NCBI GenBank assembly: GCA_902384555.1
Contig: CABMCD010000027.1
Span: 25,067 to 89,066, forward strand
Direction: 5' to 3'
DNA from: an uncultured archaeon
Lineage (GTDB): Archaea > Micrarchaeota > Micrarchaeia > Anstonellales > Anstonellaceae
DNA: 64,000 nucleotides
Position 1 is the first letter of the stretch. The number at the start of each line of letters is the position of its first letter. Positions 12,245 through 51,900 of this stretch are shown here, one piece after another. Made by a program: the position numbers and the translations under genes. The notes beneath the pieces are model-generated. The model was not told the origin of the DNA. It made no database searches and worked only from the letters and a program-made list of their open reading frames with translations.

Positions 12245-13272
12245 AGGAAATGACGCTCCGAGCGCAAAGCGGGACCACCCGCATACTACTGGATGCGAAG
12301 CTGGAGGACTTGTCCAAGCACGTGCCCCCCAAAACACAGGCCGTGATGGTGGTGGATGCCGAAGTGCTTAGGCTTCACGGCCCGCGCCTGCCCAAACTGC
12401 CAGTCATTTCCATCGAGGCCACGGAGGACAACAAGAGCCTCGACACCATCTGCAAAATCTACGAATTCTTCATGCAGCAGGAGCTGGACCGCACGGGATT
12501 TGTAATCGGCATTGGCGGCGGCATCGTGTGCGACATGGCCGGCTTCGCGGCTTCCACCTACATGCGCGGCGTGCCGTTTGCCTACGCGCCCACCACGCTT
12601 CTGGCGCAGGCCGATGCGTCACTGGGCGGCAAGACCGGCGTCAATTTGCAGGGCTACAAAAATCAGGTCGGGACATTCTGCCAGCCAAGCTTTGTGCTCA
12701 TGGACCTCTCCGTTCTCAAGACCCTGCCCGGGCCGCAAGTGCGGGACGGATTTGCGGAAATCATCAAGCACGCCGCCATTGCGGATGCGCAACTGTTCGA
12801 AATGCTGGAGAAGAACGCAAAAGATGCGCTTGTGCTGGATGAGAAGGCGCTGCGCGCCATTCTGCTCCGCTCGCTGGCCGTCAAGATTTCCGTTGTGGAA
12901 AAAGACGAGAAAGAGGCCGGCGTGCGCCGGCTGCTCAACTTCGGGCATACGCTGGGCCATGCGATTGAGAAAACGCAGCAAAAAAGCCATGGGCAGGCCG
13001 TGGCGATTGGGATGGTGCTGGCGGCCAAGATGTCGGTGGAAAGAAAGATGATGAAAGAAGGCGAGTGCAAACGGCTGATTTCGCTTTTGCGCGCGTATGG
13101 CCTTCCGACCGAATTGGATGGACGGCCGGATGCCCTGCTGCAAGCCGTAACGCACGACAAGAAAAGGGCGGGCGCAAGCCTCCATATGGTGCTGCTGGAA
13201 AAAATCGGGCAAGCTAAAGTGGTGGCAGTGCAAATGGACAAACTAGCGGGAGATTTGCATGATTTGCGTTAG
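12241..13272 (+). CDS. aroB: 3-dehydroquinate synthase
   Basis: [20 protein letters not shown]...[12 protein letters not shown], the DHQS metal/NAD-binding motifs. Confidence 0.85.
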
Positions 13273-25705: not shown

Positions 25706-28700
25706 GTGTTTGTCCTGCAGATGGGTGCCCTCAAGCCGGACGCTTCAAACCAGCCCGCTAGCGGAGGCGCCGACGCCCTGTTCTCCTCCTCTTCTTTCGC
25801 CCAGATGCTCAAGGCCGCGCTCTACAATATGGACATGATCGGGGGCGGGCAGGTGCGCCTCACCCCCCTGCTGCCGACCTTCGGCGCGCAGGAGCAGCAG
25901 GAGGCGCTGCAAAAAGTGCTGGACGGCATGGGCCGCAACGACGTGGCCGTGGAGGTGCGCGACCAGGGACTGTATTTGCGCAAGCTTCCCCCCAAACAGA
26001 ACGAGGACGTGGTGCTCACCCACGTGCAGCCGGGCACCACCTTCCCCTTCCGCTTCCCGCCCGTCGACCCGGGCATGCGCGTGGAGGACGTGCTCGATGC
26101 GGTGCTCACCCAGCAGCTGGGGCCGCGCATGGCGGCCATGGACCCGGCGCAGGCCGAGGATTTGAAACAGATATACGGCACGCTGGCGGAGCGCTACCGC
26201 GACGACCCGACGCACGAGCACCGCGTGGATGTGACGATGGGCGAGGACGGCAAGTGGAAGGCCGCCGAAGTGCAGGCGGTTCCGGTGCCGATGGGCGCCA
26301 AGGAGGCGATGGAGCAATTCAGGGCCAAACCGGGCGTGGAGAGCGCGCTGGACGCCATTCGGGCCGTCAAAACGGAGATGGACGGGAAGAAAACAACGGG
26401 GGCGGGGCAGAAAAAATACGACAGCTCGCTGCGCCAGCAATACCTTCTGCCCATCCTCTCCGCCCTCACGCCGCAGGAAAGAACCGAACTGGTGCAGAAA
26501 ATCGGCACCGACCCGCGCTTCGAGCGGGAGGAAAAGGACTATCTTCGCCAGCAGCTGGCCAAGACCTCTTCGTATGTGCAGGGCAAGCCCGCGCTTCTCA
26601 AGCTTGGTGCGGGGCTGAAGGGGCTGGACCTGCCCGAATTGCAGGAGCGCATGAAGCGGACCGTGGACATCTATCTGTCCAGCCCCGGCTCCAATCTCGG
26701 CACGGCCGCCGCCCAAACCTTCAACAAGCTCTTTGCGGACGCGCTTGGAAAATGCACCAGCGTGGAGCAGTACCGCCAAGTGGTCCAATACGGCTTCAGC
26801 CTCGTCTCGGGCACCTATTTGCAGAAAATCACCTATGACAAGGGCGAGAAGAAAGGCCAGCTCGTGATTGACATTGAGCAGATGGCCAAGCAGGGGATGG
26901 GCGGCCCGAACATGCAGGGGGCGGTGCGCAGCGAGCAGATGCTGGCCTTCCTCACGGGCAAATACAACGAGATGAAGGACGAGCTGGAATCGGAGGCGCG
27001 CTTTTCCTATGCCCGCGCCATGAATATCAGCTCGTATCGGCTGACCTACCAGAACGGCAAGCCCGTGCTGGAACCCAACCCCGACATTCCGGCCGGCCCG
27101 CTCTCGCCCTATGCGCCCGCCAACCTCGCCAAGAACATGCCCAAGGACCCGGCCGCGCGCGAGAATTATTTGCAAACCAAAATCAACGAGATGCAGGCAC
27201 TGGAAAGCCGCTCGCGGCTTCAGCGCGTGATGGGATACGAGCAGCCGCTCACCGTCACGGAAGGCGGCGGCACGCGGCACGTGCCGGGCTACATGGATTT
27301 GGTGAATGACCCGCATTTTCTGGCCGACGGCGGCCTGCGCATGAACTGGAACGGCGACGCGCGGAAGCGGGCGGACGTGGGCTTCTTTTTGCTCAATTCC
27401 GCCTTCGCGGCCGAGCAGACGGCGGACAGTTATGCCGCGGCGCCGGGCTCCGAGCGCGGCGTGGCGCGCCTGCGCCAAATCGCAAAAGCCTACCAGCAAT
27501 TGGAGAAGGACTTCAAGGCCGGCAAGCTGGACATCGTGGACGCGCTGGACGGCGCGCGGGATTTGCAGAAGCAGTTCGACGCCACCATGCAAAAGCTGCC
27601 CCAAGACTTGTTCGTGGCCGGCGGGCACGCCACCCTCTTCGGCATGGAGGTGGACAGCGAATTCTTCCGCTGGACGGTGGCCAACAAGGCGGCCATCGGC
27701 ACCGTGGTGTTCACCGGCATGTCGCTTATTCCGGGCGGGCAAATCGGCTCGGCCATCGGCTTCACCTACATGGCCGCCAACGACATCTACGAGGGCATAC
27801 GCAGCGGCAATGCCGAGCAAATCATCATGGGCAGCGCCATGCTGCTGCCTTTCGCCGGCACGGCCATGATGGCGCGGGCCGGGCGGCTGGCCGAGGTGGG
27901 CGAGGCGGCCGGCGCCCTGCGCTGGACGCGGGCGGGAACGGCTGCCTCCCGCACGGGCGAGGTGGTGCTCTATGCCGGCATGGGCAAGGGCGCGTGGGAA
28001 ATATACAAAGGCATCAATGAGGGCTATTTCAGCTACAGCTCCGACATCGGCAGCATAGGCTCGCTGGTGCTGCCCGTCGGCATCATGCACACGGCCAAGG
28101 CGCTGAAGACGAAAACGGTGAGCGGCAAAGCCGAAGTGAAGGGGGAAACCGCCAAGGTGCCGGCCGAAGTGAAGGAGGAGCCCGGCACCAAAACACAAAT
28201 GCCCGCGCCCAATGAAGTGGAAACCAAGACGGCCTCGCTTGAGACCGGCAAGACGGGCACGGCCGTGGCGGGGCTGGATGTGGATGCGGCGAAGCGGCCG
28301 CTGAGCCAGCTGGGAGCGAATAAGACAACCGACGCAGCGGCCAACAAGGGCGCAGAGGAGACGACCGCGCTTCCGACCGAGGTTGAGGCCCGGCAGTGGG
28401 AAGTATTCAGGGAATTCTGCATCAAAGCGGCGGAAGACTACGCGCAATACGAACGGGAGCACCCGGACGTGAATGAGACAGACCCGCTCAACAACACGCC
28501 CGCAAGCGTGCTCTCAAAGAATTACGACCAGCTGGTGGAACTGGCCAAGACCAATGAGCTGGCCGCCATGAAACTGCAGTGGCTGACGAAATATTCGCCC
28601 GACTTTTTCCAAAGCGCGGATGGAGGCCGCGTGCGACAGCTGGTCCTGGCCGGGCAGGACAATCCGCTGCTCATGGAAGTGGCGCGCGACTTGGCTTGGC

Positions 28701-31700: not shown

Positions 31701-33142
31701 TCAAGGCGCCCGCGACTGGGGCGGAAGGGGAAGTTGGCGGCGGGACGGAAGGGACGGGCGGACCGACGAATGGGATCGGGCCGAAGGCCGCGGGTGGGAC
31801 GGAAGAAGCAGGCACCGGACAACAGACGAGCATTGATGCCGGATACTGGAGGAACGGCCAGCCGCGGATGAACATCGGCGGGCAGGACGGGATTCCGGAC
31901 GGGCAATATGTTCTCTTTGAAAACAAGAGGGGAAAGGGAAAGCGATGGGTACTGGCCAACGAAGACGGCAAAACGGAGGAGCTGCAAGACCCCAAAATTG
32001 GCCAGAAGCTGGACCAGTTGTGGAAAAAGAACAAGCCGGCGCCGGAAACGGAAACAAACGCGACAAAAAGGACCATGGCGGATGACATCTTCTCCGCCCA
32101 AGTGGGGCCGGCTGAAATCGAATTCGCGGGCAAGATAAAGAGCCTGTATGAGAAAGCACTTAACACCAAGACAGATGTGGAACTGCAAGGAATTCTGACA
32201 GAAATGGAAACGCTCGTCTCGTCCGAGCCGCTGACGCCAAGCAGGATGAAAGCGGCGGCAGAGGCGCTCGGCATTGATGCGGGCCGGATGAACGCTCTGG
32301 AGCAGAACTTGGAGGTGCTTTGGCCCATCTGCGACCGCTTCTCGGACGCCATGATGGCGGGCCAGGCCGAAATGGGCGGAAGCGGGACGACCTGCATCTA
32401 CTTGGGCCGGGACGGTTGGGCCATGATGTTTGCCCATGCGCTCAAGACCGGCAACGCGGACGGAAGCATCCGCTCGCTGGTGTTCACGCGCGACATGATG
32501 GAAGTAGGCGAGGGAGAAAGCCATGCCGGGCCTTCCGGTGCGCCGGCCCCGTTCAGCATACAATACCGGACACTGCGCCGCGGGGCTTTCAACTCGAATC
32601 CGGTCGGACAGGCAGATTATGCCCTGAAAACCTCTGAGTTCATGGACAAGTATACGGCTTGGTTCGGCAAACAGTGTGAAAACGAGGGATTCCGCAATGA
32701 AGTCGTGAAGGTGTATGATTACATCAAGGCGAACGGGTCAGTGAAGACCGATGCGCAGGGGCGCATCGTCCCGCAGAACTTTTTGGTCGCCGACATCGGG
32801 TTCATTTCGTTCCCCCCGTTCATCAAGAGCGTCATTGAGTACGGGGCCGTGCATGTGGACGGCCTTCCGGCCGGACAGGTGAAGGGAGGCGTGATGTATT
32901 ACCAGACGGCGGCCGGATTCGAATATCTGCCCAATGTCCGCAAAGCCGACGGCTCGGACGGCTCCGGCTTGGCGAGCGTGAGTAAGGTTGAAAAGAAGAG
33001 GCTGGAACCAGTCAACTTCAGCGAACCGGTGTCCCAAGTGGACGCCCAAGGAAACGCGGTGCTGGACATCGGCCCCCGGCGCGCATCCGATGCGCTGTTC
33101 TTTTATTTGATGATGGGCAAAACCATGCAGGATGCGAAGTGA
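25706..33142 (+). CDS. giant multidomain protein (2478 aa) with predicted TM hairpin, internal repeats, caspase-like His/Cys dyad, coiled coil and GHKL/histidine-kinase-type ATPase domain
   Basis: Uninterrupted 7.4-kb ORF with complex composition. HATPase_c boxes around aa 1885-1985: N-box AVGNLCSNAERYG, G1 VMDDGPGF, G2 QVGLSTVKL. HG...SC dyad at aa 1482 and 1524. Two hydrophobic helices around aa 656-730. Confidence 0.8.
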   Translation: MFVLQMGALKPDASNQPASGGADALFSSSSFAQMLKAALYNMDMIGGGQVRLTPLLPTFGAQEQQEALQKVLDGMGRNDVAVEVRDQGLYLRKLPPKQNEDVVLTHVQPGTTFPFRFPPVDPGMRVEDVLDAVLTQQLGPRMAAMDPAQAEDLKQIYGTLAERYRDDPTHEHRVDVTMGEDGKWKAAEVQAVPVPMGAKEAMEQFRAKPGVESALDAIRAVKTEMDGKKTTGAGQKKYDSSLRQQYLLPILSALTPQERTELVQKIGTDPRFEREEKDYLRQQLAKTSSYVQGKPALLKLGAGLKGLDLPELQERMKRTVDIYLSSPGSNLGTAAAQTFNKLFADALGKCTSVEQYRQVVQYGFSLVSGTYLQKITYDKGEKKGQLVIDIEQMAKQGMGGPNMQGAVRSEQMLAFLTGKYNEMKDELESEARFSYARAMNISSYRLTYQNGKPVLEPNPDIPAGPLSPYAPANLAKNMPKDPAARENYLQTKINEMQALESRSRLQRVMGYEQPLTVTEGGGTRHVPGYMDLVNDPHFLADGGLRMNWNGDARKRADVGFFLLNSAFAAEQTADSYAAAPGSERGVARLRQIAKAYQQLEKDFKAGKLDIVDALDGARDLQKQFDATMQKLPQDLFVAGGHATLFGMEVDSEFFRWTVANKAAIGTVVFTGMSLIPGGQIGSAIGFTYMAANDIYEGIRSGNAEQIIMGSAMLLPFAGTAMMARAGRLAEVGEAAGALRWTRAGTAASRTGEVVLYAGMGKGAWEIYKGINEGYFSYSSDIGSIGSLVLPVGIMHTAKALKTKTVSGKAEVKGETAKVPAEVKEEPGTKTQMPAPNEVETKTASLETGKTGTAVAGLDVDAAKRPLSQLGANKTTDAAANKGAEETTALPTEVEARQWEVFREFCIKAAEDYAQYEREHPDVNETDPLNNTPASVLSKNYDQLVELAKTNELAAMKLQWLTKYSPDFFQSADGGRVRQLVLAGQDNPLLMEVARDLAWRRPQLLDPASLAVVLNESGQATARIMQGGGKFDYPLALHIFSVNPALLAEEAPMQALLKWAHNSRDPAAFRLIDRLVNDPGLPQARESLYKAFDAMTFHELDVRNPAAQKFEGTENLLRRFDRWRDDLGTQPRPVLTAEEQAQWNAVELLLSDVGKFEATYTDPASPLADPINRLPPELFSKNYVRLLELCKESEYGPQILSILIRRTPEIFDDPGHRRMRQLLGAAEDSPRLWDAVAELAGERPDLFNDQSIGQLFSNYPADQAPMWLVSKLAKSQPWLMGGERAMDALLRFNAFDEAGLVLRTLNNSHATNAFCLAAWQELPFLQSLTFRDVHSMFEPLKNYEPFPGNKYPYQEVPELLRSMQSLEARSPGAVADLYNGFGIRRFDRYSAEEMAQQHDNQQYAQQSGQAPQTDKPVLLWITAVNDHNGVFATHSGKIQNLKNDFNVIYVEAGNKLELASRFGRTLRAYNPDNQPVTVAVNMHGSGFSGELGSGRHGDLNTGDVILNRNYDPYLPAGSAVLWISCKLGQEGGLAHKFMQKYDKYFVTGFDGSTGFDNINYMGKSKGYFEFDITPNRSDVRVISSEPPTPEVKTGKAAATGNAYEPAAQITPEQTNPVAAEKTAAGVAAEGEAPKLSEKQMEEQAILHDAKNAVVACDTPTKALQMYLDAFAESPERTALEGNLSALEADISIINQGFDKLSNLSDPAYRAKLEKQKADISGQLGEIGPDYREEAQKKLDQINRDLADLDDPDYRERLTADLRVRSRQVEAKMKEVNLEVDRLMNANSLSEADAADIGMFNNGLRNNGADLHGALGELRALDETGVHQPEVGEYNIVAAVRNYFKSASKSGSKFGANVSVLEVGPDGTRREAGDHFTALYDPTLLRRAVGNLCSNAERYGNSKAWMEVEITPTEVRIRVMDDGPGFRPQDVGRAFDFKSGIENYGNKKSSQVGLSTVKLDVEKMGGTVAITDGPQLGGGPTTVEIRLPRGKGVEGETGAEIKAPATGAEGEVGGGTEGTGGPTNGIGPKAAGGTEEAGTGQQTSIDAGYWRNGQPRMNIGGQDGIPDGQYVLFENKRGKGKRWVLANEDGKTEELQDPKIGQKLDQLWKKNKPAPETETNATKRTMADDIFSAQVGPAEIEFAGKIKSLYEKALNTKTDVELQGILTEMETLVSSEPLTPSRMKAAAEALGIDAGRMNALEQNLEVLWPICDRFSDAMMAGQAEMGGSGTTCIYLGRDGWAMMFAHALKTGNADGSIRSLVFTRDMMEVGEGESHAGPSGAPAPFSIQYRTLRRGAFNSNPVGQADYALKTSEFMDKYTAWFGKQCENEGFRNEVVKVYDYIKANGSVKTDAQGRIVPQNFLVADIGFISFPPFIKSVIEYGAVHVDGLPAGQVKGGVMYYQTAAGFEYLPNVRKADGSDGSGLASVSKVEKKRLEPVNFSEPVSQVDAQGNAVLDIGPRRASDALFFYLMMGKTMQDAK

Positions 33143-33146
33143 TTGG

Positions 33147-33506
33147 ATGAAAAAAATGAACTTCGGCAAAACTGGCGCGGATGCAACCCATGATGTTGGG
33201 GTGGGTGCCTCCAAAACGCCCTTGGAGAAGAGCCCTATGAAATCCTTCGAATGGCCGGTGCGGGACAAGCAGGATTTGGAGCGCGTGCTGTCGGCGGTTT
33301 TGAATGCCGCGAAGGAGAAATTCGGCCCCAAGCTCAACCAGTCGAGCATCATGGGGGACAAGATTACGATGATTTACAGCGAGTTGGGAGGGGGGGCATA
33401 CCTCAGTGTGGCCTATGACGCCGCCGCCCAAAGGGCGACGGTGAAATGCGTCGACACCCCGCCCGGCATGTTCGAATCCATAAAAGCGGAAATCGAAAAG
33501 GCGTAA
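33147..33506 (+). CDS. small hypothetical protein, translationally coupled to the giant gene
   Basis: Candidate starts at 33132, 33147 and 33156 overlap or abut the giant-gene stop at 33142. 119 aa with no known motif. Confidence 0.4.
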   Translation: MKKMNFGKTGADATHDVGVGASKTPLEKSPMKSFEWPVRDKQDLERVLSAVLNAAKEKFGPKLNQSSIMGDKITMIYSELGGGAYLSVAYDAAAQRATVKCVDTPPGMFESIKAEIEKA

Positions 33507-33512
33507 ATAGGC

Positions 33513-34496
33513 TTATTCTTCCAAAACGGCGGGCTTGGTGGCCTGCGAAAAGGACAGCAGCCGGTCTGCCGTCTCCACCAAAAGGCCGAAGTTGTCGACC
33601 GAGTGGAATTTCGACGGGATGCCGGAAAGCCCCCCGTGCGCGCCGGAGAGCGCGCCGGCGATGGAGGCGATGGTGTCCGAATCGCCGTTGTCCACATTGG
33701 CGGCCGTGACCACCGCCCGCTCGAAATCGTTGAAGTCCAGGGCAAAGCAGAAGACCGCGTAGCCCAGCGTCTGCACGGCCGAAGAGCCGGTGCCCAGTTC
33801 GGCGGCCGCGTGGTCGGCGTCCGACGATTTTGCGAGCGCGAGGGCTTTCTGAATCTGCGCGGCAAGGTTGGGGTCCCGCACGCTGGAAAGCGCCTTGGAA
33901 ATGGCGGAGGGGCCGTCCAAGCCGTGATGCACGAACAGGTTGACGAGGCCGGCCACGAAGGCGGCTGCGTCCTGCGTGAGGATGGAATTGTGCGTCGGGA
34001 TGCTGGAGAAGCGGGCCTGCTGGACCGCCTCCCCGTAGTCCTCGAAGAAGATGCCGACCGGGGAGGCGCGCATGGCCGAGCCGTTGGTCTTGGCGTCGGC
34101 TTTGCCGCTCTCGTAAGGTGATACGCCCTGCTTGAGCCGCTTGATGGCCTGTATGCTGGTGCGGCCGCCGTAAAAACCGTAGCGGTCGGCCATGTCCATG
34201 AGCTTGATGGAGAAGTCCTTCAGGTCGAGAAGGCCCTTGTCGACAAGGGACTGGGAAAGCGCCAGCGTCTGGTAGGTGTCATCCGTGTATTGGCCGGCCT
34301 TGAGGTGGGAGGACCAGTAATGGGTGGATGGGGGGGTCTGGAAGCTGTGCACCGGGCCGTTGAAATACTGCCCGAACAAGGCTCTCGGAACCCGCTCAGT
34401 GGGCATTCCCAAAGCGTCGCCAACGGCGACGCCCACGAGGGTTCCCCTCGCCTTGTCGGCGCGCCTGGAAACGCCTGAAAACTTCGCATTAAGCAT
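33513..34496 (-). CDS. ADP-ribosylglycohydrolase family protein
   Basis: GVAVGDALGMPTE...TDDT...GSAMR motifs (the binuclear Mg site of the ARH/DraG family). Confidence 0.85.
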   Translation of the reverse strand: MLNAKFSGVSRRADKARGTLVGVAVGDALGMPTERVPRALFGQYFNGPVHSFQTPPSTHYWSSHLKAGQYTDDTYQTLALSQSLVDKGLLDLKDFSIKLMDMADRYGFYGGRTSIQAIKRLKQGVSPYESGKADAKTNGSAMRASPVGIFFEDYGEAVQQARFSSIPTHNSILTQDAAAFVAGLVNLFVHHGLDGPSAISKALSSVRDPNLAAQIQKALALAKSSDADHAAAELGTGSSAVQTLGYAVFCFALDFNDFERAVVTAANVDNGDSDTIASIAGALSGAHGGLSGIPSKFHSVDNFGLLVETADRLLSFSQATKPAVLEE

Positions 34497-34802: not shown

Positions 34803-35780
34803 ATGGCGGATTCTCCCATCTATGACGTGCTCGTGATTGGCGCCGGCTGCGGCGGCTGCTCGGCGGCCATGTACGCGGCGCGCTTTGGAATGAAGGTGCT
34901 GATGCTCGGCGAGCTGCCGGGCGGCACCATCACCCAGACGCACGTGGTGGAAAACTACCCCGGATTCGAGACCATCACCGGCCTTGAATTGGGCGAGCGG
35001 CTGCTCAAGCACGCGCAGGCCTATGGCGCGGAACTGAAGATGGAGAAGGCGCTCAAGGTGGAGAAAAAAGCGGACGGAACGTTCGCCACGACTACCGATG
35101 CCGAGGCCACCTACCTCTCGCGCACCCTCATCGCCGCCACCGGAGCGGAGTGGAAGAAGCTGGGCGCGCCGGGCGAAAAAGAGTACGCCAACAAGGGCGT
35201 GCACTACTGCGCGCTCTGCGACGGCTCGTTCTACAAGGGCAAAACGATTGCCGTGGTGGGCTCGGGCGATTCGGCCGCGAAAGAGTCGCAGCTGCTGGCC
35301 GAATACGGCGCGCATGTCTATGTCTTTGTGCGCGGCCATGAGCTGCACGGCGAGCCCATCAACAACAAGCGCGTGGCCGCCAACCCCAAAATCACCGTCT
35401 TTACGGACGTGCAAATCCGGGAGATTGCCGGCCAGCCGAAAGGCAAGATGACGCACCTGAAACTGACCAAGCCCTGCGCGCCGATGGTGAAGCAGGCGGA
35501 CGGCTCGCTCAAGCCGGGCCAGCCGACCGATTCCTTCCCGGCCGACGCGCTCTTCGTGCTCATCGGCCACTCGCCGCTCTCCATCCTGCTCAAAGAAATG
35601 GGCGTCGAGCTCAACGCGCGGGCGGAAGTGAAGGTGGACCGGCTGATGCGCACCAACATCGAAGGAGTGTATGCGGCCGGCGACGTGAACGATTCGGAGT
35701 TCAAGCAGGCGATTGTGAGCGCATCGGACGGCGTGGTGGCCGCCTACTCGGCGCATCAGCTGCTGGAAAAAAAGAAATAA
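34803..35780 (+). CDS. trxB: thioredoxin-disulfide reductase
   Basis: VIGAGCGGCSAA FAD motif, CALCDG redox-active disulfide and GSGDSA NADPH motif. Start at MADSPIYDV. Confidence 0.85.
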   Translation: MADSPIYDVLVIGAGCGGCSAAMYAARFGMKVLMLGELPGGTITQTHVVENYPGFETITGLELGERLLKHAQAYGAELKMEKALKVEKKADGTFATTTDAEATYLSRTLIAATGAEWKKLGAPGEKEYANKGVHYCALCDGSFYKGKTIAVVGSGDSAAKESQLLAEYGAHVYVFVRGHELHGEPINNKRVAANPKITVFTDVQIREIAGQPKGKMTHLKLTKPCAPMVKQADGSLKPGQPTDSFPADALFVLIGHSPLSILLKEMGVELNARAEVKVDRLMRTNIEGVYAAGDVNDSEFKQAIVSASDGVVAAYSAHQLLEKKK

Positions 35781-35814: not shown

Positions 35815-36504
35815 ATGCGCGCGCAAACCTCGGCCGAATGGGCCTTCATTCTGGGCGTGGTGCTCACGGCCGCCCTGCTGGTGCTGGCCACCTCCAGCCT
35901 GCTGCCCGCCGGCGTGGGCGGGCGGGTTCAGGTTCAGGACTCGGTTGCGTATTGGGGCTCGCAGGCGCGGCCGCTGGAAGTGGCCGGCTGGCAGATGGAG
36001 GCCACCGGAGCCAACCTCACCGGCGCCAACCTTACCCTGGTGTTCGCCAATGCCGGCACCGAACAGGTGCGCATCCGCAAAATCATGCTCGCGCCCGGCT
36101 CGTTCACCCAAGTCTACAACGCCTCCGGCACAAGCCTGGGAACGGCCGACGCGCTGGACATCCTGCTGCTGCCCTCCGACCGGCTGACGCTGGTGCTGAG
36201 GCAGCAAGCCGGGGCCGCAGGCGCCTACGCCGTCCCGCCGCTCTACACCCTCAACCTCACCATCACCTATGACGGGACGTTCCCCTCCATGGTGGAGAGC
36301 GGGCGCGTGCCGCTGGCGGGCGAGGCCAAGGTCATCGACCAGGCCGAGGGCATCCCCTGCCGCACCAACGGCGACTGCGCGTCCGGCTACTGCCACGACA
36401 CGGGAGGTGGCAAGATTTGCGTGGAATGTATCGCCAACGGCCAGTGCTCGTGCCCGCCCCCCAAGAACGCGACCTGCGTCAGTTACGCCTGCCAGTGCAC
36501 TTAG
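35815..36504 (+). CDS. pilin-like surface protein with class III (archaeal prepilin-type) signal peptide and Cys-rich C-terminus
   Basis: MRA|QTSAEWAFILGVVL with Gln+1 and Glu+5 then a hydrophobic helix. NLTGANLT, NAS and NLT sequons. C-terminal CRTNGDCASGYC...CVECIANGQCSC knot-like block. Confidence 0.6.
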   Translation: MRAQTSAEWAFILGVVLTAALLVLATSSLLPAGVGGRVQVQDSVAYWGSQARPLEVAGWQMEATGANLTGANLTLVFANAGTEQVRIRKIMLAPGSFTQVYNASGTSLGTADALDILLLPSDRLTLVLRQQAGAAGAYAVPPLYTLNLTITYDGTFPSMVESGRVPLAGEAKVIDQAEGIPCRTNGDCASGYCHDTGGGKICVECIANGQCSCPPPKNATCVSYACQCT

Positions 36505-36636
36505 GCGGGGCCAAGAAGCGCCGCTTTGGCGGACAAAAGCGGCCGCGTTGCGGGGCTTGAGGGCCCGAATTTATTCTTTTTTGCGACGGAGGGCCGAGGG
36601 CAGGCTTTTAATCCCTTTTGGCGAGTAGGTGGCCGT

Positions 36637-39600
36637 ATGGGAGAAGAAGAGAGAAGGGGCGTGAGCAGCGCCGAATTCCTGGCCCTGGCGGCCATCCTTT
36701 TCGTGGCGGCGCTGGTGCTGTCCCAGCTGCTCGGCATCCTGCCGCTGCAGGGCGTCCTGTTCTCGCAGTCCAGAACCTATTGGAACGCGCAGGCCTATCC
36801 GCTCAAAATCACCGACTGGGCGCTCTTGGTGGCCAACGGGACGGGCGGAGACGGCATCTACCGCACCGAAGCCAATCTCTCCATGGTGCTGCTCAACCCC
36901 ACCACCAGTCCGCTCACCATGCAGGCCATCAGCATCGGGCCGGGCAATTTCAGCCAAGTATATGATTTGGACACCCACCAATGGCTGGGGCCGGCGAACC
37001 AGCTCAACATCCGCATCGAGCCGGGGCAGAAGAAGGGGCTCATCGTCCAGCACTGGCGGCTCGGCCCGCCATCCAGCGCGCCGCTGGCCGAGCGCTTCGA
37101 GGCGGACCAGGAATACCAGTTTGACGTGCAGTTCACCTATGCCGGGCGGCTCGAATCCGATTCCGCGCAGACGGCCGCCGGACAGGGCGGCATCCTTACC
37201 CTGCAGCACGGCAGCCTGCCGCTGGTGGGCCAGACGCGCTATGCCGGCATCCCCAGCGGCGTGTGTCCGAGCGGCACGAGCTATTGCGCGGACGGGAGCT
37301 GCTGCGGGGCCGGACAGTGCTGCGGCGGGACGTGCAAGCTGCCCTCCCAATACACCTGCGACGCCTCGTGCACCTGCTGCCCCCTGAGCCAGACGCCGTG
37401 CAACGGCGTGTGCTGCCCCTCCAGCCAGATTTGCGTGAACGGCGCCTGTCAGGCCCCGAACTGCACGTCTCCCTCGTTTGCCTGCGGCCGCTTCTGCTGC
37501 CCCGACAACTACTATTGCGCCAATGACAGCACGACCGATTACGGACAGGCCTGCGTGCGGATATGCAAGAGCCCCACCAACGGCACGTGCGGGCAGTGGT
37601 GCTGCCCCGACGACCAGACCTGCAACTTCGCAGGCGCCCCCTCCATCGACACCGCCTGCGCGCCCACCTGCGCCCCGCAGGTGCAAACCAGCTGCCTGGG
37701 CCCCAACTGGACGGCGAACTGCTGCGAGAACGTCAGCAGCGTCGTCTGCGCCAACGCGTCGGGCACCTGCTGCGACCTCAACGTGGGCATGGCCTGCAAT
37801 TTCCTCAACTCCAGCGGCAACTTCACCGCCTGCTGCAACAAGACCAACCAGCAGTGCACCACCGGCGGCTGCTGCTCCAATCCGGGCGGGGCCTGCACCA
37901 CCAACGCGGACTGCTGCGACGGCTGGGGCTGCAGCAACGGCGTGTGTTCCAGCTGTCCCGCCGGCTGGAGCGCCTGCTGCGCCCAGCCCACGCTGCTGTG
38001 CAACTTCAACCTCTCCAACCCCGACCCGATTTCCTCGCGCAACTGGAACCCGGGGCTCTATCAGGACTGCTGCCAGCACAACCTCGACAATAACGGCAAC
38101 TACATCAACGAGAGCTGCCAGGGCAACTGGTTCGACGGCACCCGCTTCTGGTACGGCTGCCCCCCGGACAACATGCTGACCTCCACCTGCCTCAACGACA
38201 CGGCTTGTGCAAGGGGACCCTACTGGTACAACTACACCAATTACTCCACCGACGGCGTGATATACCGCCCGTGGCCGGCCGGATGCCCCTCCTTGAGCAG
38301 CGGCGGCTACCCCAACAACAGCGGCTGCTGCATCAACAACACCTGGGACTACTGCAACCCGGCAGAGGGCGTGTACTGCTGCCCCGGAACCTACTGCGGC
38401 CCGGACAACAAGTGCACCTATCCCTTCACCTGCCCCTCCAACACCGTCTACATCGACAACGGAGACCATGTGGACAACTACTGGGACTGCTGCCCCAGCG
38501 GCAACGTGAGCTGGCAGAACGCCACCACGGCCGTGTGCTGCCCCAACCCCAGCCTCATGAAAAGTTTCTACGACCCCAACACCGGAGCGCTCTACAGCCG
38601 CTGCTGCAACTCGGCCAACGACACGCTGTGCGGCGCGAATGGCGTGTGCTGCCCCGCCGGCCTGTGCGACGAGGTGAGCGGAACCTGCTGCGGGACCGGC
38701 ATGACGGTGTGCCAGACCGGCTACAATGCCAACATCTGCTGCAACAGCACCACCAGCAACTGCGTGCCCAACAACGGCCCGCGCAGCTATGGCGCGTATT
38801 CCGCCTGCTGCCCCAAGGGCGCGAACGGCAACCAGACCACCTGCGCCAACGGGGCCTGCTGCGACACCACCACCAGCGGCATGGTGTGCACCGGCGACGG
38901 CTGCTGCAACACCACCAGCGGCTCGGGCTATGAGATTTGCAGCGACCAGAACGACACCTGCTGCGGCCCCAGTCCGACCCGCGAGTGCAAGAACGAGCTC
39001 AGCTATACGGGAGGCTACCCGGTGGCGCTGATGGGCAGCGTCTGCTGCGCGGGCGACCAGGTGGCCTGCCAGAAGCAGTGCTGCTCCTCGGAATCCAACT
39101 GCATCCCCGCCAAGTGCCCGAGCATCAACGAGTCGGGCAGCCTCGTCATGCTGGACTGCAGCCCCAAGTGCTGCGAGAACTACAAGGGCACCCCGCCCAA
39201 TCCGCAGCTGTGCGGCAACACCACCTGCTGCTATGGCGCCAGCAGCTGCCTGCAGCCCTCCGACGGCAGCAGCCCGCGCTGCTGCCCCTCGCCCGATTTC
39301 GGCTCCACCCCCGTGCTGTGCGGCGGCACGGGTGAATGCTGCGACGTGGCGGGAGGCTCGGTGTGCTTCGGCACGGTGTGCTGCCCCCCGCCCAACAACA
39401 CGGCCTATTGCGCCGGCAACAACCAGTGCTGCAACCAGAGCTGCTCGCAGCCCGGCAACGTGTGCTGCTCGGGCGGCGGCGGGCCGACGCCGGACTCCTT
39501 GGGCAACTACCACTGCTGCCCGGCGCCCAACAACACCGCCTATTGTCTGGGCAACGGCATGTGCTGCAACGAGAGCTGCAAGGCGGGCGACCTGTGCTGC

Positions 39601-40872
39601 ACCTCGCCCACCAAAGAGTCGGCGCAGGGCCCGCTGGGCGACTACCGCTGCTGCCCCGACGGCAAGACCGAGATTTGCACCGGCGACAACACCTGCTGCG
39701 ACCACTGCACGGCCGGCACCGACGGCAAGACCTACTGCTGCCCGGCGCCCAACAACAAGATATACTGCGCGGGGGCCAATGGGCAGGGAGCCTGCTGCGC
39801 CAGCCCCACTTGCACCCCCGGAACGGACGGCTATAACTACTGCTGCGCGGCGCCCAACAACGTGAGCTACTGCCCCGGCAGCCCGCAATGCTGCTCCCAG
39901 AACTGCATCGACGGGCACTGCTGCCAGGACACCCCGCCGGACGCGGACCCGAACGGCAACATGTACAGCGTCGTCTTCTGCGCGGGCGACAACCAGTGCT
40001 GCGGGCACACCTGCTCGTCCGGGCACTGCTGCCCGTTCGATACGCATGGAAACCTGCAGGACTATGTGAACGGCCAGTGCTGCCCAACGGACCAGAAATA
40101 CTATGACTCGAGCGCCGGAAAATACCTGTGCTGCAGCGGGTCACTGTGCAACGGAGAGTGCTGTCAGGCGAGCGGGAAGGTTTGCACGACATATACAGGT
40201 TTGGACGGTAATCCGCACAGCACCTGTTGCCCGCCCGGCCAAGTGGCGGATGCCAGCGGCGTGTGCTGCGACTCTAAAGACCGAGTGGACATTGGCGGCG
40301 TCCTGACCTGCTGCCCGGCCGCCCAGCAATGCCCGGCCGGTGCTCCGACACAGTGCTGTCCGAGCGGACAGAGTTGTGCAACGTATTCGGATTCGTTTGG
40401 AAACCCACAGACTAAATGCTGTCCCGTCGGCCAGCAGGCCTTGGAGGGAAGCGGCCAATGCTGCGACCCGGCCAGCATCCAAACCGTCAACGGCAACCAG
40501 ATTTGCTGCGACGGCTCCGGCCTCAGCGCCTGCATGGTGAACAATGTCGAGGGCACCCCCAATCCCTTCTGCTGCCCGCTGGATGGAAATGGCCAGTGCA
40601 TCATGTCGGTTTGCGGCGGAGCCTGCTGCGACGAGTCCATCGACCCCATAACCAAGGCGCCGCGCAACGTCTGCCACCGGGAACTGACCCCGCCGCAATG
40701 CCTGCCGGGCCTGACATATGACCCCGGACACACCTGCCCCACCCCGCCCAACCCGCCGGGGTCGGTATATTGCGGCAGCGGCGGCATGACCGGAAGCACC
40801 GGATACTGCTGCCCGCCCGGAACCAACTGCTCAGACCCGAATCTGGACCTGAAGAGCTGTATAGTCCAGTAG
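36637..40872 (+). CDS. giant cysteine-rich (about 16% Cys) pilin-like surface glycoprotein, paralog of the upstream gene in its N-terminal domain
   Basis: Start at MGEEERRG|VSSAEFLALAAILF (class III signal-like). The N-terminal ~230 aa aligns with the upstream gene (YWxxQAxPL, IxPGxFxQVY). The following ~1200 aa is dominated by CC dipeptides and repeated CCPxPNNTxYCxGN modules. Confidence 0.75.
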   Translation: MGEEERRGVSSAEFLALAAILFVAALVLSQLLGILPLQGVLFSQSRTYWNAQAYPLKITDWALLVANGTGGDGIYRTEANLSMVLLNPTTSPLTMQAISIGPGNFSQVYDLDTHQWLGPANQLNIRIEPGQKKGLIVQHWRLGPPSSAPLAERFEADQEYQFDVQFTYAGRLESDSAQTAAGQGGILTLQHGSLPLVGQTRYAGIPSGVCPSGTSYCADGSCCGAGQCCGGTCKLPSQYTCDASCTCCPLSQTPCNGVCCPSSQICVNGACQAPNCTSPSFACGRFCCPDNYYCANDSTTDYGQACVRICKSPTNGTCGQWCCPDDQTCNFAGAPSIDTACAPTCAPQVQTSCLGPNWTANCCENVSSVVCANASGTCCDLNVGMACNFLNSSGNFTACCNKTNQQCTTGGCCSNPGGACTTNADCCDGWGCSNGVCSSCPAGWSACCAQPTLLCNFNLSNPDPISSRNWNPGLYQDCCQHNLDNNGNYINESCQGNWFDGTRFWYGCPPDNMLTSTCLNDTACARGPYWYNYTNYSTDGVIYRPWPAGCPSLSSGGYPNNSGCCINNTWDYCNPAEGVYCCPGTYCGPDNKCTYPFTCPSNTVYIDNGDHVDNYWDCCPSGNVSWQNATTAVCCPNPSLMKSFYDPNTGALYSRCCNSANDTLCGANGVCCPAGLCDEVSGTCCGTGMTVCQTGYNANICCNSTTSNCVPNNGPRSYGAYSACCPKGANGNQTTCANGACCDTTTSGMVCTGDGCCNTTSGSGYEICSDQNDTCCGPSPTRECKNELSYTGGYPVALMGSVCCAGDQVACQKQCCSSESNCIPAKCPSINESGSLVMLDCSPKCCENYKGTPPNPQLCGNTTCCYGASSCLQPSDGSSPRCCPSPDFGSTPVLCGGTGECCDVAGGSVCFGTVCCPPPNNTAYCAGNNQCCNQSCSQPGNVCCSGGGGPTPDSLGNYHCCPAPNNTAYCLGNGMCCNESCKAGDLCCTSPTKESAQGPLGDYRCCPDGKTEICTGDNTCCDHCTAGTDGKTYCCPAPNNKIYCAGANGQGACCASPTCTPGTDGYNYCCAAPNNVSYCPGSPQCCSQNCIDGHCCQDTPPDADPNGNMYSVVFCAGDNQCCGHTCSSGHCCPFDTHGNLQDYVNGQCCPTDQKYYDSSAGKYLCCSGSLCNGECCQASGKVCTTYTGLDGNPHSTCCPPGQVADASGVCCDSKDRVDIGGVLTCCPAAQQCPAGAPTQCCPSGQSCATYSDSFGNPQTKCCPVGQQALEGSGQCCDPASIQTVNGNQICCDGSGLSACMVNNVEGTPNPFCCPLDGNGQCIMSVCGGACCDESIDPITKAPRNVCHRELTPPQCLPGLTYDPGHTCPTPPNPPGSVYCGSGGMTGSTGYCCPPGTNCSDPNLDLKSCIVQ
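39360..39910 (+). repeat. tandem coding repeat modules (CCPxPNN[TKV]xYCxGxxxCCxxxC) within the Cys-rich gene
   Basis: At least four copies visible at about 39375, 39511, 39733 and 39838. The tgctgc hexamer is highly recurrent. Confidence 0.6.
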
Positions 40873-40969: not shown

Positions 40970-42460
40970 ATGAAATCCCCTATTCCGACCACCAAAAACA
41001 ACGTTGTGCGTGAAGCCGGCCTCAAGGTCGGCGAACTTGGAAAAGACGTCTTGAATTTCGCCACGGCGAATCCGGGCAAGACGGCGGCAGGCGTGGCCTT
41101 TGTGGCCAAGCTCCTGACGCCGGACGTGGCTTCGGCGCAGGACCCCTCGATTGTCAACATCACCCGCGTGGATGGCGCCATCAACAAGGTCATTCCCTTT
41201 GAGGGCGGCACTTACAATATTGTCGGCACGTCCAGCACCGTCACCAAGACCATGTCGCTGGACTCGGTTTACCTGTGCCAGACGGTGGATTTGAATTCCT
41301 CGTCTTCCTTCAAGTTCTTCGGGAACTTGGAAGTGAAGGTGGCCGGCTACGACAACGGCGTGCTGACGCTCAAGCCCGTCAAATCCGCCTATGGAACCAT
41401 CCAAATCCAGAACGGCGACAAGCACGGCGAGTGGACGTTTGAGGTGGCGGAGCAGTCGGCTTCGGTCCTCAAGCTGCGCGCGGTTGCGACCAACCAGACC
41501 GTGAAGCAGGGCGACACCCTGCGCGGCCCGGCGGGCAGCATTGACCTGACCAACGTGCCGTCCCCGGCCTATACGCAGGCGATTATCCGCTCCATCTCGA
41601 ACACGACCATTCCGACTGACCAGGGAGACGTGACGATTGCGAACGGCTTCAAGATTCAGATTGTCCGCGACAGTTTGGCGAAGAACCCGGTGAAGAATGA
41701 CTTCTATGTTTTGAATGGGTCTGGAACCACTGTTATCGGCGAGTTTGTAGTGGACCCCGGCACCAAGAAGGGCTACTACAAGGACACCACGGGCACGACG
41801 GAGTTCAAGAAAAACAGTACTCCGGCAGTCAGTATTAGCGCAACCAATGCCATTAATGCGGCTGGAAAGAGTGCGGATAGTAAACCTATTGTTCAACACT
41901 CGATAAAATTCGATAACACCAGTTCAGACCGCTTGATGTTTGCTATCCAAAATGGCGAGATAGTTAGCCAAACATTCGATTTGGTTCACTCGACAATCAA
42001 GGGTACTACCGTGATTGACTCCCTTATGCAGTCCGGCCTGCTCTCCTACCTCGACCCCGTCTCCAACTTCAAGGACACCGTCGTCACGGGCCAGAACGGC
42101 AAGCTGGAAGTCGTCATCGCCTACAACGGCAACGACCCGCGCAACAACGTCCAGCTCGTGCTGGGCAAGCCGGACTCCAGCGTCACGGACGTGCGGGAGG
42201 GCCCGGCGGGCGCCATCCACGCCGACATCCGCGTCTACCCCAACCCGATTGCGGACCGCGTGATGAACGTCGAGCTGCCTCAGGCCGTTGAGAAGGACCG
42301 CAAGTTCTACATCTACACCCAGCTCGGCCAGCAGGTGGGCGAATTCACCATCCCGGCGGGCGAGCAGGTCGGCCATGTCTTCCTCAAGGACCTGTCCACG
42401 GGCACCTACTTCGTGACCGACGGCAAGCGCGGCCTGCCGATTGTGGTGTTCGACAACTGA
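40970..42460 (+). CDS. secreted/surface protein with N-terminal anchor helix and T9SS-like (Por_Secre_tail-type) C-terminal beta-sandwich domain
   Basis: C-terminal RVYPNPIADRVMNV...FYIYTQLGQQV...GTYFV...KRGLPIVVFDN matches the Bacteroidota C-terminal sorting-domain pattern. Many NxS/T sequons and an N-terminal hydrophobic helix. Confidence 0.6.
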   Translation: MKSPIPTTKNNVVREAGLKVGELGKDVLNFATANPGKTAAGVAFVAKLLTPDVASAQDPSIVNITRVDGAINKVIPFEGGTYNIVGTSSTVTKTMSLDSVYLCQTVDLNSSSSFKFFGNLEVKVAGYDNGVLTLKPVKSAYGTIQIQNGDKHGEWTFEVAEQSASVLKLRAVATNQTVKQGDTLRGPAGSIDLTNVPSPAYTQAIIRSISNTTIPTDQGDVTIANGFKIQIVRDSLAKNPVKNDFYVLNGSGTTVIGEFVVDPGTKKGYYKDTTGTTEFKKNSTPAVSISATNAINAAGKSADSKPIVQHSIKFDNTSSDRLMFAIQNGEIVSQTFDLVHSTIKGTTVIDSLMQSGLLSYLDPVSNFKDTVVTGQNGKLEVVIAYNGNDPRNNVQLVLGKPDSSVTDVREGPAGAIHADIRVYPNPIADRVMNVELPQAVEKDRKFYIYTQLGQQVGEFTIPAGEQVGHVFLKDLSTGTYFVTDGKRGLPIVVFDN

Positions 42461-51777: not shown

Positions 51778-51900
51778 GCCCTGGTAGTCCAACCTGGATA
51801 GGACGCGAGCCTCCGAATGGCAAGTGCTACCTTAAGCACGAGTGCGAGTAGCCTGAATAGGTGAAAGCTCACGATCCGGGTTCAAATCCCGGCTGGGGCG
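51778..51900 (+). tRNA. intron-containing tRNA, probably tRNA-Arg (anticodon CCG)
   Basis: Acceptor GCCCUGG/CUGGGGC, D-arm GUCC-AACCUGGAUA-GGAC, anticodon loop CUCCGAA, T-arm CCGGG-UUCAAAU-CCCGG. ~49-nt insert 3' of the anticodon loop with an internal hairpin. TATA ggatataaag 26 nt upstream and a T7 tract downstream. The anticodon stem has one C-A mismatch as folded. Confidence 0.55.

Follow-up and report, generated by a model that had tools for sequence, protein, structure and literature searches.

A giant gene and its features

The 64,000-nucleotide (nt) stretch analyzed here, referred to as the window, is from an uncultured archaeon placed among the Anstonellaceae of the Micrarchaeota (GenBank assembly GCA_902384555.1, contig CABMCD010000027.1, positions 25,067 to 89,066). 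It encodes a giant protein of 2,478 codons, followed by a small coupled open reading frame (ORF) and, on the opposite strand, an ADP-ribosylglycohydrolase (ARH). An earlier note, made from the sequence alone, had read in the giant a membrane-type hairpin, a caspase-like protease, and a histidine-kinase-type ATPase. The features of the giant and the small ORF are as follows, with coordinates in the window and residues counted in amino acids (aa).

25706-33142, forward strand: giant ORF, 2,478 codons from GTG 25706 to the stop TGA 33140-33142, no interruption
25706-27625, forward strand: N-terminal region, aa 1-640, no signal peptide
27626-28105, forward strand: Gly-rich hydrophobic helical hairpin module, aa ~641-800 (helix, loop NDIYEGIRSGNAEQ, helix IIMGSAMLLPFAG)
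28106-28390, forward strand: linker 1, aa 801-895, low-complexity, A/T/K/E-rich
28436-29623, forward strand: duplicated helical module, REP1 (aa 911-1077) and REP2 (aa 1151-1306)
29738-30460, forward strand: caspase-fold (clan CD) cysteine-protease-like domain, aa 1345-1585, with D1425, E1450, H1482-G (codon 30149-30151) and C1524 (codon 30275-30277)
30461-30610, forward strand: linker 2, aa 1586-1635, low-complexity, A/P/T/E-rich
30611-31315, forward strand: helical region before the ATPase, aa 1636-1870, opening with a conserved ILHDAKN (H1646, codon 30641-30643)
31340-31666, forward strand: HATPase_c (histidine-kinase-type GHKL ATP-binding) domain, aa 1879-1987
31676-31840, forward strand: linker 3, aa 1991-2045, Gly/Glu/Thr/Ala-rich
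31841-33139, forward strand: orphan C-terminal region, aa 2046-2478, no homologue and no family match
33132-33506, forward strand: small coupled ORF, 124 aa from ATG 33132 or 119 aa from ATG 33147

The probable start of the giant is ATG 25721, which fits a TTTATAAT box at 25678-25685. The resulting protein of 2,473 aa is identical to public record VVB57399.1, titled 'Histidine kinase-, DNA gyrase B-, and HSP90-like ATPase [uncultured archaeon]' and encoded on a 100,976-bp contig. At full length the giant is a singleton among 5.8 billion clusters, as a word-indexed search returned only itself, and a scan of genome contigs with the full-length sequence found no relatives.

The reading frame is real and intact. 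Over its 7.4 kb neither a stop nor a break of frame occurs, and GC by codon position (0.63/0.43/0.82) is gene-like throughout and resembles that of the remaining genes of the 62% GC window. An assembly chimera or a decaying pseudogene mimicking a single long gene is therefore extremely unlikely, even though the contig is metagenome-derived, the protein is a mosaic whose pieces match different relatives best, and GC at third codon positions (GC3) falls over the last 490 codons. Every catalytic residue of the protease is intact, as are the ATP-binding motifs, the flanks are syntenic with another genome, and relatives of 2,182, 2,380, and 3,409 aa from independent assemblies are also long multi-module proteins with the same modules.

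A predicted caspase-fold protease in the middle of the chain

To find relatives of the central part, aa 640-1839 were used as a query in an exhaustive HMMER search over 1.84 billion representatives. The search gave 124 hits, mostly on aa ~1354-1575, and local iteration extended these to a domain of ~230 aa in more than 115 proteins. Used as a word-indexed query, the protease alignment returned only 3 proteins. Near-invariant in the family are D1425, E1450, H1482-G1483, C1524, G1527, and a GIRxFxRY motif. The earlier note had picked out H1482 and C1524 as a dyad with caspase/CHAT-like spacing; both positions are right, being invariant in 30 sequences and His/Cys in about 95% of 130 alignment rows.

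An AlphaFold model of the domain, built from the 30-sequence alignment, reached a predicted local distance difference test (pLDDT) of 89.4 and a predicted template modeling score (pTM) of 0.87. The modeled fold is that of clan CD (caspase/legumain/clostripain/gingipain/CHAT-like), with the His-Gly and the Cys after successive strands. H1482-G1483 follows strand 132-136 and C1524 follows strand 174-178, the His and the Cys being 42 residues apart. In structural comparison the model scored as follows.

SAVED-CHAT, 12.1
DUF4347 protein Tce1 of the Pseudomonas aeruginosa type VI secretion system (T6SS; 9qpe), 12.0
Clostripain, 10.2
Legumain, 10.0
GPI transamidase, 9.8
Caspase-9, 9.7
Gingipain, 9.3
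MARTX cysteine protease domain (CPD), 8.9
TcdA CPD, 8.0

The top 50 Foldseek matches were caspases and one gingipain.

No Pfam model matched the protease domain of the giant at E<=1, and neither C14 nor CHAT appeared at E<=10 when it was scanned in segments. Among 30 relatives, DUF4347 matched weakly in seven (best E=5.4e-6), Peptidase_C14 in one (E=0.004), and CHAT in one (E=0.18); P0007 reached 21.6 bits against DUF4347, under the cut-off of 24.6. The family profile also matches the sequence of 9qpe_G (E=1.4e-3). On sequence comparison we place the domain as an uncurated sister family of DUF4347, a member of neither C14 nor CHAT. The caspase/CHAT-like assignment of the earlier note thus stands on the predicted fold and the conservation within the family, not on a hidden Markov model (HMM) match of the giant itself. 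With defined catalytic residues in the modeled fold, the predicted protease is probably active.

The arrangement of His-Gly and Cys after successive strands is common to CHAT (SAVED-CHAT 8tl0, TPR-CHAT/Csx29) and DUF4347 proteins (Tce1/Tce2, 9qpe). Tce1 and Tce2, delivered by the T6SS, are putative cysteine proteases whose His/Cys dyad has been aligned with TcdB (PMC13323088). The family of the giant differs from both in its N-terminal helical sub-domain with GIRxFxRY, in the conserved D1425 and E1450, and in being uncurated, while in the giant the domain sits mid-chain in an archaeal protein of 2,478 aa.

To see where the family occurs, GTDB species genomes were scanned for the pattern with six typical protease domains as queries, giving 84 loci. 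Most are from Patescibacteria (Saccharibacteria, many Parcubacteria groups, and Peribacteria). The others belong to several Bdellovibrionales, uncultured Gammaproteobacteria, and Myxococcota and, within DPANN, to Micrarchaeota, Altiarchaeota, and Woesearchaeota. The usual family member has ~550 aa; its N-terminal half is helical and the protease domain comes last.

A kinase-type ATP-binding module

The HATPase_c domain (PF02518) was matched with E=1.2e-14 (55 bits, cut-off 26.4) and is the only region of the giant matched in a search of PDB sequences. The earlier note had described a complete GHKL domain. The domain itself, the N box (NLCSNAERY), and the G1 box (DDGPG) are present, but the G2 box is shortened to VGLS. 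In place of the ~150-aa coiled coil that had been proposed upstream, there is a helical region interrupted by Pro/Gly and carrying three ~23-aa DPxYR repeats.

An H-box-like ADLHGALGELRAL in this region (H1810) had also been suggested. H1810 was rejected as phospho-acceptor, the position being T or Q in the closest relatives. A different His opens the helical region in every HATPase-bearing relative: the segment reads ILHDAKNAV in the giant (H1646), P0003, and P0005, IMHNAKNLA in P0023 and P0137, and LHLHDWKSS in P0052. From this conservation H1646 is a candidate phospho-acceptor. It lies 247 residues ahead of the N-box Asn; the usual distance from a phospho-acceptor His to the N box is ~100-110 residues, about half of that here. 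We take the motif (h-H-[DN]-A-K-N) to resemble the HRxKN H-box found in HisKA_2 kinases.

In line with what its public annotation implies, the giant could be an oversized but otherwise ordinary two-component sensor histidine kinase. Like such kinases (HisKA plus HATPase_c), it has an ATP-binding domain with N and G1 boxes and a conserved His in an upstream helical segment, the latter in all HATPase-bearing relatives; the HATPase_c match is strong (E=1e-14) and the best NCBIfam matches are of the EnvZ/RstB/CpxA type. However, these models and the PDB kinases align over the ATP-binding part alone, and the search for HisKA that the earlier note had proposed came out negative, with no HisKA-type model matching the giant even at E<=10 in the Pfam segment scan. 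The giant also has no recognized sensor domain, and the kinase part makes up less than 15% of it. A scan of the genes of the 64 kb window, covering all but a few ORFs that are short or weak, found no receiver domain or response regulator. Two-component systems are moreover rare in DPANN (PMC5847659). There is only a slim chance that the giant is a kinase of this kind. Because of the missing HisKA match, the atypical spacing, and the lack of a response regulator nearby, we treat this part as a kinase-type ATP-binding module with a candidate phospho-acceptor and not as a classical two-component sensor.

The N-terminal half and the hydrophobic hairpin

Over aa 1-1340 no Pfam or NCBIfam model matched and no N-terminal trafficking domain was recognized. 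The first 640 residues gave no family match and are without a hydrophobic N-terminal signal, in agreement with the earlier reading that the giant has no signal peptide. RTX or CROP repeats and a type I secretion system (T1SS) signal had no Pfam match anywhere in the giant, and a look for tandem repeats of these types found none.

The two hydrophobic helices that had been likened to a membrane-inserting hairpin at aa 656-730 belong to a Gly/Ala-rich stretch (aa ~656-800) that is conserved in relatives, but its hydrophobicity is borderline for a transmembrane helix (best 19-mer Kyte-Doolittle 1.41). Across the family the module takes the form of a helix, a loop (..DI.EG...GN/D..), and a second helix (IIMG.AM..). 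Homologous modules are found in P0006, P0023/P0137, P0010, P0005, P0014, P0003, and P0052, which are the large DPANN relatives that could be checked, at 230-680 aa from the N-terminus.

Three low-complexity linkers of 50-95 aa each are found along the giant. The first is the Lys/Thr/Glu/Ala-rich linker and the third the Gly/Glu/Thr-rich linker after the ATPase that the earlier note had described. The duplicated module reported there is genuine as well, with REP1 and REP2 29% identical across 169 aa (E=1e-15); its size, however, is ~170 aa instead of 90.

Related genomes carry different modules at one locus

The named relatives of the giant are all DPANN archaea (Candidatus Micrarchaeota MDE1798541.1, NYZ74502.1, PIT84945.1, MFH1094858.1, and MFH1095134.1, and Candidatus Iainarchaeum), which bears out the earlier guess of a small-genome archaeon. 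Different relatives share different parts with it. P0006 (1,278 aa) has aa 1-830 in common with the giant (38% identity) and an unrelated C-terminal half. P0004 shares linker 1/REP1, REP2, and the protease; in P0005 and P0003 the shared part is aa ~1581-2037 (for P0005, 45% identity over 460 aa), and in P0023 and P0137 it is the ATPase domain. The last 430 aa are shared by none of the relatives compared, and a metagenome scan with the N-terminal alignment found nothing.

Two of these relatives lie at the corresponding place in their genomes. P0006 is a positional orthologue with a histidine phosphatase divergently upstream. The P0005 locus (L001, GCA_021814005.1) has three of the neighboring genes in the same order as here, with the phosphatase 36% identical, the thioredoxin reductase 71%, and the Cys-rich protein 34%; P0005 has just the hairpin and the helical-HATPase unit in common with the giant. 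Since these positional orthologues carry different modules, one chromosomal locus holds very different module sets in related genomes. Another pair, P0052 (2,182 aa) and P0013 (3,409 aa), is mutually syntenic and differs by more than 1,200 aa in length.

The mix of domains had been called unprecedented and without a described family. The first holds for the full length only, as the modules are found again, in this order, in DPANN relatives. On the second, there is no curated family, but an uncurated one shares the module order; for example, Micrarchaeota PIT84945.1 has a hairpin, protease, HATPase, and kinase-like end in that order. On these sequence relationships we regard the giant as a member of an undescribed family of large modular DPANN proteins (Micrarchaeota/Iainarchaeota).

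Some further observations concern the loci of these relatives. In the P0052/P0013 neighborhood (L004, L089) the conserved order is a PHP phosphoesterase, the large P0052 or P0013 gene, its partner, a prenyltransferase, DUF192, a T2SSE ATPase, and T2SSF. In L004, a TPR protein and a protease of the PrsW type are encoded immediately upstream; in bacteria, PrsW has been connected with the export of polymorphic toxins (PMC3482391). P0023 (1,680 aa; L069 1668-6710) stops after the ATPase domain, and the near-identical P0137 (2,380 aa; L086 6001-13143) adds TPR-like and kinase-like parts. The difference between these two stems either from natural truncation or from a frameshift in one of the assemblies.

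End domains and their partner ORFs

The C-terminal ~430 aa of the giant had been described as without a recognizable motif, and every library searched agreed. There was no match in Pfam (ten segments, E<=10), NCBIfam, PADLOC, PHROGs, or PDB sequences, and tblastn against plasmids and phages, a word-indexed search, and a metagenome scan all found nothing. The small ORF likewise has no homologue and no match in the libraries searched (Pfam, NCBIfam, PADLOC, PHROGs). A start/stop overlap with a 119-aa ORF had been claimed; an overlap of 11 nt exists for the 124-aa form from ATG 33132, but the 119-aa form from ATG 33147 begins 4 nt past the TGA. A GC-rich hairpin and T-run (CGGCGCGCATCCGATGCGCTG TTCTTTTATT) lies at 33077-33107 on the forward strand, within the last ~60 nt of the giant and before the small ORF. 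It could modulate read-through into the small ORF, or be there by chance.

The tight coupling to a small downstream ORF that the earlier note had stressed gains weight from the relatives, where the downstream ORF co-varies with the C-terminal domain. Seven of them (P0004, P0005, P0013, P0031, P0052, P0053, and P0137) have a common end domain of ~350 aa with the invariant residues K...D-x4-N-x13-D. In protein-kinase-like enzymes, the catalytic Lys, the Asp/Asn of the catalytic loop, and the metal-binding Asp are spaced in this way. At the level of this motif the end domain appears to be protein-kinase-like; it had no match among PDB and Pfam sequences. In five of the six loci read, it directly precedes a homologous partner ORF of 209-234 aa.

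L004 8001-15250: kinase-like end domain and partner ORF
L086 6001-13808: kinase-like end domain and partner ORF
L087 3170-7911: kinase-like end domain and partner ORF
L089 2935-13812: kinase-like end domain and partner ORF
L090 111-3810: kinase-like end domain and partner ORF

The partner overlaps the end-domain gene by 4 nt in P0052, P0137, and P0031 and follows it after 3 nt in P0013 and 13 nt in P0004. The partners of P0052, P0137, and P0031 are related to each other (pairwise phmmer E=1e-14 to 1e-21), and a profile of the three finds those of P0013 and P0004 at 1e-14 and 1e-21. The five loci differ both in their surroundings and in the architecture upstream of the end domain. P0005 is the exception, with a truncated and divergent end domain and an unrelated downstream ORF of 232 aa. 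In these relatives the C-terminal domain and the downstream ORF pair up like a cassette. By analogy, polymorphic toxin systems follow such a logic in their toxin/immunity or enzyme/partner pairs.

Two candidate assignments were tried and rejected. The C-terminus of the giant is not a diverged kinase-like domain by hmmsearch (no match) or hhalign (probability 0.1), and the ORFs downstream of P0005 and of the giant showed no relation to the ~220-aa partner family.

Base composition also changes toward the end of the giant. From 0.78-0.89 in the modules upstream, GC3 drops to 0.69-0.75 across linker 3 and the C-terminal region (0.72-0.75 in the latter) and to 0.72 in the small ORF; in the ARH gene it is back at 0.84. 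The lower GC3 is compatible with a more recently acquired cassette of end domain and partner, a weak hint because further genes of the window also reach 0.71-0.74.

The genomic setting and the ADP-ribosylglycohydrolase

The window is archaeal, with an intron-bearing tRNA, FttA/aCPSF1, a proteasome beta subunit, and a geranylgeranyl reductase. It also holds full tryptophan and shikimate operons, SerRS, MetRS, and serine-synthesis genes. The genes on either side of the giant and its small ORF are the following.

25040-25654, reverse strand: histidine phosphatase (His_Phos_1), divergent upstream neighbor, found next to the orthologous genes in two relatives; a synteny marker only
33513-34496, reverse strand: ARH (Pfam ADP_ribosyl_GH, E=1.3e-61), convergent, its stop 6 nt from that of the small ORF

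The convergent ARH neighbor is thus as the earlier note described it. A link in function could take the form of an ADP-ribosylating toxin whose self-damage is reversed by the adjoining ARH (Tre1/Tri1-like or DraT/DraG-like). The 6 nt between the two stops, the lack of an assigned family for the C-terminal domain, and a weak resemblance of the ARH to the Tri1 (E=1e-21) and DraG (6e-20) models, both far under the cut-offs, would suit such a pair. However, searches of the C-terminus against Pfam, NCBIfam, PADLOC, and PHROGs matched no ADP-ribosyltransferase family, the GC3 of the ARH gene is genome-like and unlike that of the C-terminal cassette, and being convergent the gene is not co-transcribed with the giant. 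ARH is also absent from the loci of both syntenic relatives and from all other relatives' loci examined. We consider an ADP-ribosylating toxin of this kind very unlikely; the adjacency is probably coincidental, and ARH is probably no part of the system.

Beyond ARH lie a thioredoxin reductase and Cys-rich pilin-like proteins. The larger of the latter (36526-40872, forward strand) has 1,448 aa, is extremely Cys-rich with many CC/CxxC motifs and N-glycosylation sequons, and has a pilin-like hydrophobic N-terminus. It is preceded by a 229-aa paralogue with the same N-terminal region (35815-36504, forward strand). Both are ~34% identical to a protein of more than 1,359 aa at the syntenic place in a Micrarchaeota genome (L001) and have no Pfam match. 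At 40970-42460 (forward strand) a 496-aa protein is encoded with a C-terminal Por_Secre_tail, the sorting domain of bacterial type IX secretion (E=1.4e-6; 29 bits, cut-off 27), which is unexpected on an archaeal contig. On the other side, adjoining the histidine phosphatase, is a 299-aa protein (24111-25010, forward strand) with an LRAT/NlpC-P60 papain-like domain (E=7e-7, 4e-5); the gene at this place on the P0006 contig also codes for 299 aa.

Elsewhere in the window, Rfam places a 123-nt, presumably intron-bearing tRNA at 51778-51900 (forward strand) that ARAGORN missed. The ARAGORN tRNA-Leu(caa) at 35476-35552 (forward strand), inside the thioredoxin reductase gene and unseen by Rfam, is probably a false call. 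Indole-3-glycerol-phosphate synthase is fused to tryptophan synthase beta (8636-10612, forward strand), and dehydroquinase, shikimate dehydrogenase, and shikimate kinase form a triple fusion (13259-15271, forward strand). The complete trp and shikimate pathways are retained in this DPANN-like genome.

Discussion

We tentatively read the giant as a membrane-associated, self-processing multi-enzyme carrier with a role in interaction or conflict between cells; the other cell would most likely be the host archaeon. It would be synthesized without a Sec signal, and its conserved Gly-rich hairpin (aa ~660-725) would insert in a membrane with the N-terminal region and the C-terminal modules on the same, cytoplasmic, face. 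From there the modules would hang on the three linkers, which are predicted to be disordered. The clan-CD protease (H1482/C1524) may cut in cis or in trans, most plausibly in the linkers, and so release the downstream modules; alternatively, it may cleave targets. The CPDs of MARTX and the large clostridial toxins cut in such a way. H1646 and the ATP-binding domain could act as an ATP-dependent switch or a phosphotransfer enzyme, distinct from a classical two-component sensor. The last domain would be an exchangeable 'warhead', and the coupled small ORF may code for its cognate inhibitor or immunity protein, or for a chaperone.

We favor this conflict reading because of the modularity at one locus, the conservation of the hairpin, the cassette-like pairing of end domain and ORF, the GC3 difference, the distribution of the protease family, and the precedent of caspase-like 'releasing peptidases' upstream of toxin domains in polymorphic toxins (PMC3482391). 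Several results weigh against it. No signal peptide, trafficking domain, or adjacent secretion-system gene was recognized in the giant and the window genes scanned; these genes include no secretion ATPase or defense-system protein, and PADLOC and PHROGs gave nothing. The giant sits among housekeeping genes at a locus conserved between genomes, with no obvious mobile island. Its hairpin is borderline hydrophobic across the family (Kyte-Doolittle 1.0-1.7), and a histidine-kinase-type ATPase is unusual as a toxin module. The C-terminal domain has no similarity to known toxins, and a single-sequence AlphaFold model of aa 2125-2478 was unusable (pLDDT 41). An immunity role for the small ORF, which has no homologue, is pure analogy. 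In the protease family as a whole, a signal-like N-terminus is absent in 71 of 73 proteins, most members also lack transmembrane-like segments, and no conserved neighbors were found across 80 genome loci (the best neighbor cluster occurs in 8 of 80). The typical ~550-aa members, which mostly lack signals and have no conserved neighbors, would fit cell-internal regulators equally well.

The giant may instead be a cell-autonomous, membrane-tethered hub for signaling or defense, with a CHAT-like protease that cleaves the cell's own proteins. The hairpin would then anchor it to its own membrane, the kinase-type module would sense or relay a signal, and the C-terminal domain and small ORF would be a further enzyme/regulator pair. 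Protease outputs of this type are known from TPR-CHAT/Craspase, SAVED-CHAT, and the DdvA anti-sigma factor. The lack of a secretion signal on the giant and of signal peptides on most protease-family members would be expected of such a hub, ATP-dependent modules suit the cytoplasm, and the gene has a syntenic place on the chromosome. Among the structural matches a signaling CHAT ranks first, and the usual family architecture of helical repeats plus protease resembles TPR-CHAT. However, wholesale module exchange between positional orthologues and end-domain/ORF cassettes are more typical of conflict or effector proteins, and the protease family is concentrated in host-dependent or predatory lineages. 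There is also no receiver domain or other signaling partner among the window genes scanned, and no match to known defense systems (PADLOC). We view a hub as possible, though somewhat unlikely.

Of known systems, a carrier for interaction with another cell would most resemble three. Nothing at the locus is curated, and its logic resembles, by analogy, that of MARTX and polymorphic toxins and of CHAT signaling proteases. With MARTX and the large clostridial toxins (TcdA/TcdB) the giant has in common a long chain, a hydrophobic, possibly membrane-active region, a clan-CD protease, and predicted enzymatic modules on flexible linkers. It differs in being archaeal, in having neither RTX or CROP repeats nor a T1SS signal, in a predicted protease nearer CHAT/DUF4347 than C80, and in a cargo that includes a histidine-kinase-type ATPase. 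In an archaeal host, activation by inositol phosphate, as in those toxins, would be unlikely.

Polymorphic toxin systems (Zhang, de Souza, Anantharaman, Iyer, Aravind 2012; PMC3482391) likewise have a conserved N-terminal part with differing C-terminal parts at one locus, a caspase-like peptidase before the variable end, and a small downstream ORF that changes with the C-terminal domain. They have been reported in few archaea only (PMC3482391). Unlike in these systems, no trafficking domain or secretion system is recognized here and the end domains are not known toxins, being kinase-like in the relatives and orphan in the giant. The SPEARE surface proteins of Nanohaloarchaeota (Hamm et al. 2019; re-analyzed in PMC10266531) likewise come from DPANN symbionts, are very large and lineage-specific, and differ from one close genome to the next; an action on the host has been proposed for them. 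They have a Sec signal, Ig-like ectodomains, and a VirB4/TraG-like ATPase in 6,000-9,400 aa; the giant has none of these domains and is predicted to face the cytoplasm.

A broader proposal, which we put forward as speculative and rather doubtful, is that DPANN (Micrarchaeota/Iainarchaeota) have their own class of self-processing multi-effector proteins, analogues of MARTX and polymorphic toxins. The hairpin would insert at the symbiont-host contact, the DUF4347/CHAT-like protease would cut, and exchangeable warheads (kinase-like, histidine-kinase-like, or orphan) would enter the host, each checked by its downstream partner. If so, the occurrence of the protease family in Patescibacteria and Bdellovibrionales would mark an effector toolkit shared by episymbiotic and predatory prokaryotes.

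Two domain families newly defined here have no Pfam entries, and neither do the hairpin module and the partner of the kinase-like end domain. One of the two is the DUF4347-like clan-CD protease family, with more than 100 sequence clusters, mostly in Patescibacteria; the other is the putative protein-kinase-like C-terminal domain with its dedicated partner protein. To our knowledge, few candidate effectors exist for host manipulation by DPANN and other ultra-small episymbionts. The locus offers handles in a predicted protease, a family-defining hairpin, a conserved His by a kinase-type ATPase, and an exchangeable end domain with a co-varying partner. These may provide testable candidate effectors for DPANN-host biology, along with a domain family common to episymbiotic and predatory lineages.

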